From assembly GCA_964201665.1 (NCBI GenBank), contig CAXNEW010000004.1:11552-75551 (forward strand): 64,000 nt of DNA. The letters run 5' to 3'. Position numbers and translations under genes: made by a program. The notes beneath the pieces were generated by a model. That model searched no databases. It was not told where the DNA came from and was given only the letters and a program-made list of their open reading frames with translations. Positions 56,502-64,000 of the stretch are shown one piece after another. Origin of the DNA: Bdellovibrionota bacterium. Lineage in GTDB: Bacteria; Bdellovibrionota; UBA2428. Positions within the stretch are counted from its first letter, which is position 1; every line of letters begins with the position of its first letter.

Positions 56502-57215
56502 ATGAACGTATTCAACAAATTAAAAATGGGAGTCGCGGCAATTGCACTGAGCTCAGCGTCGCTGAGTTTTGCAGGCAATCCCGCTTGCCCCGAAGGCCAC
56601 TGCAGCCATGTCAACGCCACTATTAAAAAGTTTTGCGATGACAACGGTTTGAAAGGTCAATTTCCGGTTATTAAAGATGGAACTATTTGCGATTGCCCAT
56701 GTAGCTGCGTCATAGGCGACACTCAAATTTTGCTAAACACGAAATTTGAATCTACACCCATAAAAAACCTTCAAGTCGGAGACAACGTAGCTGTTGTTGG
56801 CGAACGCATGGGCACTTCAAAAGTGACAAGATTTATGGGAGATATTTCGCCCGTAACCCATAAAGTTGTTCGTCTACAAACAGATAGCAAACACGAACTT
56901 GCGGTAAGCAACAATCATACTTTTGTTAAACCTAGCAAAGTGCTTGTTCAGGCTGAACAACTTTCTGTAGGAGATGAAATTTTAGACGTAAATGGAAAAC
57001 CCGTTAAAGTCATAAATCTCACAAGCAACGACATGACAGCCCAGCTTTTCAATCTGGTTGTCAATGAAGGCAGCGACAACCCTAGTGACCACATCATAGG
57101 CACTCAAGGACTCATGTCAGGTGACTACATGCTGCAAGCGACACAAGATTCACTACAGTCTGCGATCAACGTCAGAACTGGAAAAGTCCAACCCCTTAGC
57201 ATTAACAACAAATAG
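56502..57215 (+). CDS. Secreted protein: signal peptide + 44-aa six-Cys module + Hint (Hedgehog/intein-like) autoprocessing domain
   Basis: The ATG at 56502 is preceded by AAGGAG. Signal peptide MNVFNKLKMGVAAIALSSASLSFA. Hint block A is C-VIGDTQILL (Cys codon 56706-56708) with VGDNVAV. The block B-like motif is AVSNNHTFV. The C-terminal block is LFNLVVNEG...HIIGTQGLMSGD. Confidence 0.65.
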   Translation: MNVFNKLKMGVAAIALSSASLSFAGNPACPEGHCSHVNATIKKFCDDNGLKGQFPVIKDGTICDCPCSCVIGDTQILLNTKFESTPIKNLQVGDNVAVVGERMGTSKVTRFMGDISPVTHKVVRLQTDSKHELAVSNNHTFVKPSKVLVQAEQLSVGDEILDVNGKPVKVINLTSNDMTAQLFNLVVNEGSDNPSDHIIGTQGLMSGDYMLQATQDSLQSAINVRTGKVQPLSINNK

Positions 57216-57271
57216 ATATCCACAATGGGGCTAATTCCTTGGAATTGGCCCCATCACATTTCGAGGTAAAC

Positions 57272-61156: not shown

Positions 61157-62376
61157 TGACTCTAAACAATAGTAAAAGAATTTTTGTATTTGGGTTGCTG
61201 CTTTCACTAAGTTTGAAGGTTTTCGCGTTCGATACCAAATGCGTATTGAAAAATGTAACAGGCGACAAAGTTCCCGACGAAATCGCCCGCCTGAACGCTG
61301 AAGTAGAATACTACAAATGTCGTATCGCCGAACTTAAACAAGCCCGCAATCAAGCTATCGCGAATTTCACAGAAAGCGTAAGACAAAAAGCTAAAACTAA
61401 GTTCAGCGCAGAAAAACAACGGCAAGCATTTACGCTCTATCAAACAAAACGTATCATCGAAGTTACAGACAAGTACATTTCGTCTTTAGAAAGCGCAACA
61501 CAAGGTTACCTAGAAGCATTCAAAGCTTTTTCAACCACATATAAACCAAGCTATATTCAAACCCAGAATAGCATTGTTCAACTTGCCAATGAGGGGAACT
61601 TACAGTCGGGCTCTGAAATCTATTTGACGATAGAAAAACTTAAGCAGCTCGTTTACTCGGAATACCAAAGTTTTGTGCACTTCAAAGAAAATTCTGAAGT
61701 TCTGCGAGCTCGGTTTGGCAAAGAACGTCAGTACTACGAAAGTTTTTTTGTAACCAACAAAGAACTTTTCAAAGATCTAAACATTCAACCTCTTCCTAAA
61801 GTTTCAAATGCCCTCGAGGAAACACTTGATAAAGCCGTCACCTACAGTGAACAGAGATATTCTATCTTTAGGGCTCGTATTCAATCATTAGTTGACCAGC
61901 TCATGATAAGAGAGAAACGCCTCTACTTGGCCGAGCTAAACCATCGCATACGTGTCGAGATGAAAGCAAATGAGCTTAGTGAATCTGATTTGAATTTTGT
62001 AAAAAGTCTCGAGGCTGCATTTGCACAAGCGTGGAGCAGGGTTGCGGTTGAACCAAAAACACACTTACCATTCTTAGAAGAAAGTTTAGCAAAAAAACAA
62101 AAAGCCCTCGATTTATTTGCCTTATGCAATCAAAAAGAGCGCCCCTCTTGGACCCAAAGAGCCTGTCTACTTTTTCAAGAGAGCGATAAAAAGACACGAG
62201 ACTATTTAGAAATTGATCTACCTATACTTTTTAACGCTTCTATTTCACAACTGAAAGCCCTTTCGCCAGGCCAACAAGCTAAATGGATCGCGGTCGAAAA
62301 TTTGTTTCAATCGGGTTCTCAAAGCGTAGCCCTTTCAAAATATGACCAGTTATTGCGAGAGGAGGGGCACAAATGA
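61153..62376 (+). CDS. Secreted all-helical hypothetical protein (407 aa)
   Basis: ATGA overlap with the upstream gene. Signal peptide MMTLNNSKRIFVFGLLLSLSLKVFA. Confidence 0.6.
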   Translation: MMTLNNSKRIFVFGLLLSLSLKVFAFDTKCVLKNVTGDKVPDEIARLNAEVEYYKCRIAELKQARNQAIANFTESVRQKAKTKFSAEKQRQAFTLYQTKRIIEVTDKYISSLESATQGYLEAFKAFSTTYKPSYIQTQNSIVQLANEGNLQSGSEIYLTIEKLKQLVYSEYQSFVHFKENSEVLRARFGKERQYYESFFVTNKELFKDLNIQPLPKVSNALEETLDKAVTYSEQRYSIFRARIQSLVDQLMIREKRLYLAELNHRIRVEMKANELSESDLNFVKSLEAAFAQAWSRVAVEPKTHLPFLEESLAKKQKALDLFALCNQKERPSWTQRACLLFQESDKKTRDYLEIDLPILFNASISQLKALSPGQQAKWIAVENLFQSGSQSVALSKYDQLLREEGHK

Positions 62377-64000
62377 GAACGTTAAAAATTCGAGCAACTA
62401 AAATCGTGGCTCTCTTTTTTGTTTTAGCATTTAATTATGGGGTAAACGCCACTTCAAAAATTGAAATGGTATTCTATTGCTCCCCCGACTCGAGTGGTCT
62501 TGCCACACCAGTGAGTGAAGGGTTAAAATTTTCAAAGGTCAACGGTACAGGCGTTGCGTTTTACACGGCCGAGATTGCAAACAACGATCGGTACAGCAAA
62601 TCCTTTGCAGAAGTTCCGCAAAATCTGCTGAAAGTGGGTAGCAATCAAATTTCAGTCTCGGTTCATTGGCAAGGCCTCGAAACTATGGCGCGCGGATATT
62701 GCGATATATCTTTCACGCTTATAAATTCCGATAGTGCACGAAAAACTGTAGTCTCAGGGCGAGTGGGCCAAGGCCAAACCGCTGAGTTTTTACACAATGT
62801 GAATATTAATCTCTCGCTTCAAGAAATTGATCCCGTAGCTTATCGCGAAATTCAACGCTTAAAAATAGTCGTAGAGCAGTATAAAAAAGAATTGGAAAAC
62901 GTAGAAAACATTCAGCCTACTTTGGATGAACTTCGACAAACGCTTGATGACTACTCCAAATTAGATTTCGACAGTTTAAACCCTGATGATGTTCGCAAAA
63001 TTTCAAAAGAATTTGAACCCGTTGCCGAAATGATCGAAGCCTATAAACAAGATATTGAAGAAATCAGACAAGAAATAATTGCCGACCTTGAAGAGTCCCG
63101 TACGGAAATCGAGAAAAACCAAGAAACCACTTTAGAGCAAATTAAGAATTCGGGAATTGATATCGAAAACAGTAATTTTTTCGAAGTAGGTCCTGTGACA
63201 GATTTTCCGACTCCTGAAATTAACTATCCCGAAATGGAGTCAGACACAGGAGACCCCGCCAATGGCTACCCAGGCTACTACTATCGTCGACTTGCAGAAG
63301 ATTTCAAATCCAAAATTAACTTCGCAAATGAGAGCGGAAAAACGCAAGAACTCCTGGCGCTATATTGGAAAAGTTTAGAAATTTTTGAAAGTCTTGGCGC
63401 ACAACTTTCTTTTCGAGCACGGACGGCCAAAATTGAAGAGATACGGGGATTCAATGACGCTAGTAAAATATTGGCCGATACTTACGCTCTTTATTTTGAT
63501 GAATATGGGTTTTTGAAAAATTTAAAAGTCCCCTCAAACCTCAAACGCTTTATTGCAAAAGAACTGAGACAAAGTGTTAGTGACTATTCGAAAAAAATCC
63601 AAAATTTGATTGCGAATTTAGACCCTCAAGAAATTGAGCGAAATCAGGATGAACTCAATGCCTACTCTGAGCTCGTGAATGGTCTCGCGACCTCGCCAAA
63701 CTCTGCGCAGGGGGTAGAAATAAGAAGGCAATTGGGACGCGCTGTTTACGCAAGTCTCTCAACCCAGTCAGCCGAAATTAAATCGGAGGCTTTGGGCGGA
63801 GCTATTTTAGTTAAAGCTGCAGATATTGCACAATCAGAGGGGAAAACAGCTGAAAGCACTTCTCTTCTCAAGCAAGGCGCACGCATTTTAGATTTTGCCC
63901 TAGGTTTTGTTCCGGTGGCATCTGCGATCAATGATGGCCTTCAAATCATTTGCGGATTGGCAACAGGTTACGATTACACCGGCGAAAAAATGGATGGTCT
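62373..64000 (+). CDS. Secreted protein (partial, runs off the window) with a pre-toxin TG (PT-TG)-like motif at the last visible residues; likely a polymorphic-toxin precursor
   Basis: Not in the ORF track because no stop is reached. I translated it by hand from the ATG at 62373 (ATGA overlap): MRTLKIRATKIVALFFVLAFNYGVNA (signal), a beta-rich N-domain, long E/K/Q helical regions, and an ending ...LDFALGFVPVASAINDGLQIICGLATGYDYTGEKMDG. Confidence 0.6.
   Translation, partial: MRTLKIRATKIVALFFVLAFNYGVNATSKIEMVFYCSPDSSGLATPVSEGLKFSKVNGTGVAFYTAEIANNDRYSKSFAEVPQNLLKVGSNQISVSVHWQGLETMARGYCDISFTLINSDSARKTVVSGRVGQGQTAEFLHNVNINLSLQEIDPVAYREIQRLKIVVEQYKKELENVENIQPTLDELRQTLDDYSKLDFDSLNPDDVRKISKEFEPVAEMIEAYKQDIEEIRQEIIADLEESRTEIEKNQETTLEQIKNSGIDIENSNFFEVGPVTDFPTPEINYPEMESDTGDPANGYPGYYYRRLAEDFKSKINFANESGKTQELLALYWKSLEIFESLGAQLSFRARTAKIEEIRGFNDASKILADTYALYFDEYGFLKNLKVPSNLKRFIAKELRQSVSDYSKKIQNLIANLDPQEIERNQDELNAYSELVNGLATSPNSAQGVEIRRQLGRAVYASLSTQSAEIKSEALGGAILVKAADIAQSEGKTAESTSLLKQGARILDFALGFVPVASAINDGLQIICGLATGYDYTGEKMDG

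Follow-up and report, generated by a model that had tools for sequence, protein, structure and literature searches.

A candidate polymorphic toxin-immunity locus with a predicted NADase toxin and exported partner proteins in a Bdellovibrionota bacterium

Polymorphic toxin systems with a PT-TG pre-toxin module were reportedly defined by Zhang et al. in 2012. In diderm (two-membrane) bacteria, groups called 'PT-TG toxin' and 'PT-TG singleton' have been described, whose secretion route is not known; Bdellovibrio is not mentioned there (PMC13483458). Here we describe a locus related to these systems, located in a 64,000-nucleotide (nt) stretch of a Bdellovibrionota bacterium (assembly GCA_964201665.1, contig CAXNEW010000004.1, positions 11,552 to 75,551 of the forward strand). 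This whole stretch is referred to as the window, and its own numbering is used below. The block of interest consists of seven open reading frames (ORFs) on the plus strand, G1 to G7, running from 56502 to beyond 64000, and of a small gene, G8, that follows outside the window. We consider it probable that these genes make up a polymorphic toxin-immunity locus of a diderm, in which G7 would be a toxin with nicotinamide adenine dinucleotide glycohydrolase (NADase) activity, G8 its immunity protein and other products of the block its exported partners.

Like the described PT-TG toxins, G7 combines a trafficking N-terminus, a PT-TG module and a variable C-terminal toxin domain, and is followed by a small presumed immunity gene; unlike them, its N-terminal module and the proteins G5 and G6 (and likewise G2 and G3) belong to no described trafficking class. 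The Maf system of Neisseria comprises the outer-membrane protein MafA, the Sec-exported toxin MafB and the immunity protein MafI (PMC7738311, PMC4287609), and its upstream partner is needed for outer-membrane crossing (PMC7738311). The present locus has in common with Maf that a toxin of a diderm carries a Sec signal, that an exported partner is encoded just upstream and that an immunity gene appears to lie just downstream. However, there is no sequence relationship, since G1 to G7 contain no Maf-family Pfam match at an expectation value (E) <= 1 and neither MafA nor MafB is recognizable among them; moreover, there are two to four partner genes here, one of which can be fused to the toxin. A looser analogy is offered by the Streptomyces umbrella (Umb) particles of Actinobacteria, which have a single membrane; these particles contain ALF repeats and trypsin-like lectin subunits (PMC11062931). 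They resemble our locus only by analogy: a polymorphic toxin with long helices is the core of a secreted multi-protein particle, whose genes are adjacent. Neither ALF repeats nor lectin subunits were detected in G1 to G8. Colicins and S-type pyocins have a receptor-binding or translocation part with long coiled coils, a C-terminal cytotoxic domain and an adjacent immunity gene, a layout that the locus shares. Colicins, however, have no signal peptide and are freed by lysis proteins, and no homology to the locus was detected.

The basic layout of the block is as it was given in a preliminary description made from the window alone (Table 1). Four junctions are ATGA start/stop overlaps, exactly at 58006, 58653, 61153 and 62373, and the two others are gaps of 56 nt (G1/G2) and 17 nt (G4/G5). 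Export of all seven proteins is likewise upheld by a Kyte-Doolittle hydrophobicity heuristic: each N-terminus has a basic n-region followed by a hydrophobic stretch, with AXA-like cleavage sites in G1, G2, G5, G6 and G7, a signal-anchor-like N-terminus in G3 and an atypical L-N-S-C lipobox in G4. G2 to G6, which had been called unplaceable, indeed have no credible match in Pfam, NCBIfam, PADLOC or PHROGs. Trafficking domains of type V, VI or VII secretion systems (T5SS, T6SS, T7SS), Rhs or LXG, which had not been visible in the first seven proteins, are absent from all eight according to a Pfam/NCBIfam scan of the locus proteins that covered two-partner secretion (TPS)/FHA, PAAR/VgrG, LXG/WXG and RHS repeats.

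The window cuts G7, and extension of the contig, as initially proposed, recovered both the missing toxin domain and the immunity-like gene G8. The G6 protein was found exactly on an 86-kb metagenome contig, and the stretch fetched from it (L001) equals the window over 12,848 nt; in it, G7 is 769 amino acids (aa) long and ends at window-equivalent position 64682. G7 begins with a signal peptide, continues with a beta-sandwich and long helices, and ends with the PT-TG region and a domain like those of the tuberculosis necrotizing toxin (TNT) and Tne2 (aa ~635-769), the latter beyond the window. A word-indexed homologue search with G7 returned the query itself only, and an exhaustive HMMER search against 1.84 billion representatives returned 294 proteins, which divide G7 into three separable modules (residues 1-425, ~430-600 and ~630-769). 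Foldseek found only weak Ig-like or C2-like matches for the beta-sandwich and no convincing structural relatives of the N-terminal module; against viral structures, G7 gave long-helix matches only, with template modelling (TM) scores of about 0.1.

The C-terminal domain is common to 81 proteins (library-wide E <= 1.7e-5), all of which have it at the C-terminus in spite of very different lengths and architectures. Nine of these homologues contain PT-TG, and others PT-HINT, RHS, LXG or MuF, so that the domain is shared across other trafficking architectures in the manner of polymorphic toxins. In the AlphaFold model of G7, which was built with 36 homologues, the predicted local distance difference test (pLDDT) score exceeds 90 for aa 640-769, and the modelled domain has the palm-domain fold of the TNT-like NADases (M. 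tuberculosis TNT 4QLP, Tse6/Tne1, Tne2, Rhs1-CT and AfNADase; Foldseek probabilities 0.96-1.00). The best match in PDB is Tne2 (6b12; probability 1.00, target TM 0.71, root-mean-square deviation 3.3 A over 120 columns), followed by Serratia Rhs1-CT (6xtd; 0.99) and AfNADase (8pmr; 0.96), at sequence identities of 14-20% to solved NADases. Tne2, AfNADase and Rhs1-CT all belong to the TNT-like NADase family, in which the NAD-binding residues are an Arg, an aromatic residue and a Gln (PMC10539506). G7 has R680, W692 and Q751, near-invariant across the 81 homologues, which were equated with these residues by motif alignment and not by an inspected superposition; the spacing from Arg to Gln is 71 residues in G7 as against ~65 in the known enzymes. 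From the model and these residues, the C-terminus of G7 is predicted to be a divergent TNT/Tne2-like NAD(P)+ glycohydrolase. The known TNT-like NADases reach their targets through T6SS, T7SS/ESX or Rhs cages; for G7 there is only a Sec signal, together with uncharacterised partner proteins.

The middle module of G7 is, judged by its motifs, a genuine and extended PT-TG domain. G7 keeps all 16 invariant columns of a 14-sequence PT-TG alignment and contains the motif block LGxxP...ND..Q...G..TG.DY.G..M...DY..R, and nine homologues of its C-terminal domain match PF14449, with E down to 2.5e-13. The PT-TG assignment of the preliminary description is thus sustained by motif and homologues, although the score of G7 itself stays below the Pfam cutoff. 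Within the N-module family, a strict pattern match finds canonical PT-TG in G7 only, and the proteins that best match G7 residues 434-768 are toxins whose N-terminus differs and whose length is 605-656 aa. For these two reasons G7 looks like a recombinant, that is, one trafficking module joined to the PT-TG/toxin unit of another toxin family.

The N-terminal module of G7 has about 20 other representatives, nearly all with a signal-peptide-like N-terminus. The last 170 residues of 21 such proteins fall into at least eight unrelated classes, that is, the same N-terminal module is combined with unrelated C-terminal domains. Together with the small downstream genes, which vary from locus to locus, this arrangement is what defines polymorphic toxins. 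A test for paralogy among the N-terminal beta domains of the G5, G6 and G7 families gave no signal.

G8 encodes 135 aa directly after G7 (in L001). Read from its ATG, G8 overlaps the stop of G7 by 10 nt; read from an alternative ATG, it would begin 8 nt past that stop. An unrelated flavodoxin-like gene begins ~340 nt past G8. The protein has no signal peptide by the same heuristic. Small genes are also present downstream of the toxins in L003, L006, L007, L008, L015 and L018. G8 is most likely a cytoplasmic immunity protein against the G7 NADase. Its lack of relationship to known immunity proteins is usual for TNT-like NADases (PMC10539506), and a comparison with PDB gave nothing. Downstream of three TNT-like toxins, gene tables carry the label DUF7957 (PF25857), although a Pfam search did not reproduce the match (Table 1).

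Relatives of the PT-TG region were found at five loci of species-representative genomes. Four of the five are from metagenome-assembled genomes labelled Bdellovibrionales, Pseudobdellovibrionaceae or Bdellovibrionaceae, and the fifth is labelled only Pseudomonadota. This distribution, among Bdellovibrionota-type assemblies, would also suit a different reading, in which the locus is a predation weapon against prey, not a means of inter-bacterial competition, and G8 merely protects the predator from its own enzyme; Bdellovibrio is known to have proteins that shield it from enzymes used in predation (PMC4686830). We regard this as somewhat unlikely, since the varied C-termini and the varied small downstream genes within one N-module family point instead to conflict between relatives, as do the tandem paralogues of the small downstream gene in L012 (6066-6482 and 6704-7123), which may be an orphan immunity array. 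L012 represents a second type of cassette, carried by these loci with relatives of the PT-TG region (L009-L013), with the order [~700 aa][~390 aa][toxin 625-690 aa][~139-aa immunity candidate], whose accessory genes have no relation to G1 to G6 detectable by hhalign. L013 contains extra toxin-family ORFs (20-1534 and 2743-4209, the latter on the minus strand).

The two genes directly upstream of the toxin are conserved with it. The order G5-G6-G7 recurs in four other loci (L003, L006, L018 and L020), and in L007 a G6-family gene precedes the toxin, so that five unfused loci in total have a supporting gene order, each with a member of the G6 family. In L014/L018, the closest relative, the 703-aa toxin is of the same type as G7. 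In addition, seven toxins of 1024-1214 aa (P0040-type) carry a fused N-terminal extension of ~450 aa that matches the G6 family (hhalign probability 98%, E 2.4e-13; phmmer 1.5e-16 to the L003 member). Long flanks are available for one fusion locus, and there the fused toxin is accompanied by its downstream gene only. Of the partners, therefore, G6 is constant, G5 frequent and G2/G3 occasional. G6 itself is missing a ~100-aa N-terminal Cys-containing domain of other family members, and the family is predicted to be helical. A match of the G6-family profile to Cry6Aa was weak and is not trusted.

These relationships bear on what G5 and G6 might do. They could be periplasmic chaperones or stabilisers, or structural proteins of the surface, with the toxin leaving by a general pathway, for example a type II secretion system (T2SS), vesicles or lysis. 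Neither G5 nor G6 showed features of a beta-barrel or a secretin, and the helical G6 family gives coiled-coil matches only, both of which would fit such roles; so would the polymorphic toxins with only a Sec signal and a route not known that are reported in diderms (PMC13483458). However, the fusion implies that G6 travels with the toxin, which suits a co-exported subunit better than a recycling chaperone, though a stabilising role remains compatible with it. On balance we think this explanation doubtful.

Under the favoured reading, of a toxin-immunity locus with exported partners, G7 would be exported to the periplasm by Sec. G6, and usually also G5, would probably form a complex with the N-terminal module of G7. 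This complex would carry the toxin across the outer membrane of the producer or present it there, so reaching the surface or the medium, bring it to and into the target cell, or both. The outer membrane might be crossed by a dedicated route, as with MafA/MafB (PMC7738311), through T2SS or in vesicles. The toxin would be separated from its carrier at or after the PT-TG region. The NADase would then deplete NAD(P)+ in the target so that growth stops, while G8 would block it in the cytoplasm of the producer. G2, with its degenerate metalloprotease motif, G3 and the self-processing Hint protein G1 would be looser accessories. A more far-reaching proposal, which we make only tentatively, is that G5, G6 and the N-terminal module of G7 constitute an undescribed Sec-dependent delivery module that takes interchangeable toxin domains through the outer membrane of the producer and into target cells and works without T5SS, T6SS, T7SS or Rhs. 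Such a module would have several subunits and in some genomes would be a single chain of ~1200 aa; predatory use against prey or rivals may apply. It is so far represented in genome and metagenome assemblies only, of which the named ones are Bdellovibrionota.

Several observations weigh against the proposed toxin locus or its details. As to the toxin, PF14021 does not match G7 at E <= 1, the domain being beyond the reach of the model, and Pfam TNT is matched by just 9 of the 81 C-domain homologues (best 6.2e-8). The top solved-structure match of the C-domain family profile is TNT 4qlp, on the GGxxQ motif, at an E of 0.28 only, and the best Foldseek E-value is 9.7e-3, obtained with the whole 769-aa model as the query. 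PF14449 scores 15.2 bits in full-length G7 and 17.5 bits in the C-terminal fragment, against a cutoff of 23.5. As to immunity, no homologue of G8 could be detected when the immunity genes of related toxins were considered, and its resemblance to the DUF7957-type downstream genes of L007 and L008 is not significant (hhalign probability 8%). As to export and delivery, the signals were judged by the hydrophobicity heuristic only, no outer-membrane channel or T2SS gene was found adjoining the locus, the searches with G5 and G6 yielded no function assignment, and the G6-family profile gave only coiled-coil noise against PDB. Finally, the fused toxin locus is without G2, G3 and G5, which implies that these genes are dispensable for at least that variant.

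The remaining genes are less firmly attached to the toxin. G1 starts with a signal peptide (aa 1-24); next come a Cys-rich stretch of ~44 residues (aa 25-68) and, from Cys69 on, a Hint-like domain. Five Hint-superfamily models match aa 69-188: PT-HINT (E 8.3e-5; 23.3 bits against a cutoff of 27.7), Hint_2 (19.3 against 28.4 bits), TIGR01445 (18.0 against 24.5), Hint and Intein_splicing. All of them miss their thresholds. A profile of G1 and its Oligoflexia homologue P0153 has a solved bacterial intein-like domain as its first match (2lwy; E 3.2e-4), followed by two inteins. Furthermore, the blocks C69-VIGDTQILL and S136-NNH139-TF are kept in P0153, providing the putative nucleophile and the (T/S)xxH of Hint domains, and the motifs conserved between the two proteins are CPEGHCS...CxCPCSC-V..T.ILL and VS(N/D)NHTF. 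An AlphaFold model of G1 from these two sequences has a mean pLDDT of 33.7.

Hedgehog-type and bacterial intein-like proteins provide a self-cleavage model for G1. By analogy, G1 probably cleaves itself before Cys69, its putative nucleophile. The Cys-rich segment just before this residue (56574-56705; CPEGHCS...FC..NG...C.CPCSC) is also present in P0153 and could be a small disulfide-rich peptide that is released by Hint self-cleavage, as in Hedgehog. Since Hint cleaves its own chain and G1 is a separate protein of 237 aa, G1 probably processes only itself. Release of the G7 toxin in trans is therefore not to be expected, and the former notion that Hint and PT-TG act here as linked release modules is not supported. 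The sole G1 homologue found is that of the Oligoflexia assembly (L017), where a G3 homologue immediately follows it and the contig stops ~240 nt past this G3-like gene; G1 was found in no other G7-type locus.

G2 has a homologue in L014/L018 (phmmer 1.6e-43). The zinc motif HExxHxxGxxH is degenerate in G2, where two of the three His are lost (HEALRNLGYEE), whereas it is intact in the orthologue (L018:817-1563; HEVLHNLGYTH). In the latter, SDMP occurs ~25 aa past the motif and could be a Met-turn. Neither protein matches a peptidase family in Pfam, and the G2-family profile matches no solved structure in PDB, so the resemblance to metalloproteases is a motif-level observation only. G3 homologues occur in L018 (2e-7 / 3e-8) and in L017, beside the G1 homologue (1.2e-10). 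G4 matches only itself among 5.8 billion proteins and is found in no related locus; it is a lineage-specific addition. In L003 and L006, the position that G4 holds in the window, upstream of the G5 homologue, is taken by members of a single family (L003:6203-7492, plus strand; L006:6292-7389, minus strand), inverted in L006; according to hhalign, this family has no relationship to G4.

Most of the neighbouring genes are thus conserved with the toxin elsewhere, G5-G6-G7 in four other loci and G2 and G3 in one, but G4 is unique and G1 recurs only beside a G3 homologue. The seven genes do not form one indivisible unit, because G4 is without a homologue, G1 is in no other G7 locus and the fused toxin is found by itself with its immunity gene. 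Another reading takes the block as three independent units that are neighbours by chance, namely G1, G2-G3-G4 and the toxin cassette G5-G6-G7-G8, with the first two serving unrelated envelope functions. Translational coupling is indeed seen within G2-G3-G4 and within G5-G6-G7(-G8) and not across the 56-nt and 17-nt gaps; L003, L006, L007 and L020 have G5/G6/G7 without detectable G1 to G4; and no toxin is seen beside the G1 homologue on the L017 contig, which stops soon after it. On the other hand, in L018 the G2 and G3 homologues come right before G5-G6-G7, share their strand and are joined by overlaps or short gaps, the G1 homologue adjoins a G3 homologue in another genome, and the 17-nt G4/G5 gap has no plus-strand terminator-like site and hence gives no hint of a separate transcript, although a terminator scan is weak evidence. 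We consider three independent units improbable. It is very unlikely that the C-terminal domain of G7 is an ADP-ribosyltransferase (ART) or another NAD-using modifier of proteins or nucleic acids rather than a simple glycohydrolase: the ART fold is akin to that of the TNT-like enzymes, and both bind NAD, identity to solved NADases is low and diphtheria toxin appears far down the Foldseek list (rank 18, probability 0.08), but all three high-probability structural matches are TNT-like glycohydrolases and the family-level Pfam matches are to TNT and to no ART family.

With regard to genomic context, dnaE lies upstream of the block on the opposite strand, and BamA, Lnt, LysRS and PhoX are also encoded in the window. 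The presence of BamA and Lnt indicates a diderm host, and this set of genes a chromosomal region. The block is more AT-rich than its surroundings, as had been suspected by eye: mean gene G+C content (GC) is 0.409 versus 0.446 for the 31 other genes of the window (Mann-Whitney p 2e-4). However, GC at third codon positions (GC3) is similar (0.39 versus 0.40 in the rest of the window, p 0.38), so that the low GC reflects amino-acid composition and is not evidence of an island. A genomic island was considered and dropped on this account and because no transfer RNA or integrase gene was found beside the locus. Elsewhere in the window the block genes have no paralogues, a search of viral contigs gave no relatives, and nothing points to a recent transfer of the block. 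In the P0075 locus, the toxin cassette is followed by a MazE/PIN pair and by a gene for an integrase of phage type, which hints that some cassettes, unlike that of the window, reside in mobile contexts.

Related sensor histidine kinases are encoded a few kb from many of the toxin loci, possibly by chance, because such kinases are abundant and share the HATPase domain. The window also contains four ORFs of 823-1203 aa without a Pfam family. These features are listed in Table 1 with those of the locus.

Table 1. Genes and features of the locus, gene order in related loci, and other features. Coordinates are those of the window unless a locus is given.
Feature	Coordinates	Strand	Remarks
G1, exported, 237 aa	56502..57215	+	Hint-superfamily matches; homologue P0153
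G1 Hint-like domain, ~aa 69-210, putative nucleophile Cys69	56706..57131	+	
G2, exported, 245 aa	57272..58009	+	homologue in L014/L018
G2 degenerate zinc-motif position	57863..57895	+	HEALRNLGYEE; orthologue HEVLHNLGYTH
G3, signal anchor, 216 aa	58006..58656	+	start overlaps G2 stop (ATGA); homologues in L018, L017
G4, lipoprotein-like (LNSC), 456 aa	58653..60023	+	start overlaps G3 stop (ATGA); lineage-specific
G5, exported, 371 aa	60041..61156	+	partner two genes upstream of toxin; conserved position
G6, exported, predicted helical, 407 aa	61153..62376	+	partner directly upstream of toxin; conserved position, fusions
G7, exported, polymorphic toxin	62373..64000	+	cut by window end; full 769 aa
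G7 N-terminal beta-sandwich, aa 31-148	62463..62816	+	AlphaFold secondary structure, pLDDT ~60-87
G7 PT-TG core motif NDGLQIICGLATGYDYTG, aa 520-537	63930..63983	+	motif match; PF14449 sub-threshold
L003 gene order			[212][429][G5 family][G6 family][toxin 778][137]
L006 gene order			core G5, G6, toxin as in L003
L014/L018 gene order, closest relative			[214][G2 homologue][G3 homologue][G5 family][G6 family][703-aa toxin][105]
L020 gene order, NCBI metagenome-assembled genome			G5 family (profile E 9e-15), G6 family (5e-25), toxin
P0075 locus gene order			[195..][480][714, PT-TG][123]
DUF7957-labelled small gene	L007:9177-9503		label not reproduced by Pfam
DUF7957-labelled small gene	L008:4310-4708		label not reproduced by Pfam
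DUF7957-labelled small gene	L019:13090-13512		label not reproduced by Pfam
Kinase	L001:16836-20120	-	window-equivalent 67988-71272
Kinase	L003:59-1678		
Kinase	L010:4490-5974	-	
Kinase	L017:157-2046		
Kinases	L011, L013		
ORF without Pfam family	1820-4978	-	E <= 1e-5
ORF without Pfam family	5020-8229	-	E <= 1e-5
ORF without Pfam family	10914-13385	-	E <= 1e-5
ORF without Pfam family	47890-51501	+	E <= 1e-5

The block had originally been put forward as a plausible undescribed envelope-associated system of toxin delivery or processing. Its particular modules are undescribed, but its kind is known from Sec-only polymorphic toxins and from MafA/MafB. Polymorphic toxin systems that combine PT-TG, a TNT-like NADase and an immunity gene are familiar, and what is new is the trafficking module with its conserved partners. 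Polymorphic toxins that have only a Sec signal are common in two-membrane bacteria, where their exit from the producer and entry into the target are mostly not understood, Maf being a rare worked example. The locus is a small example that lends itself to testing: the toxin has a confident NADase fold, a candidate immunity gene is present, and gene order and a fusion tie two partners to the toxin. It belongs to a lineage that includes obligate bacterial predators, in which self-protection and the killing of prey are open questions. If G5 and G6 are indeed delivery subunits, they would represent a new trafficking class for polymorphic toxins.

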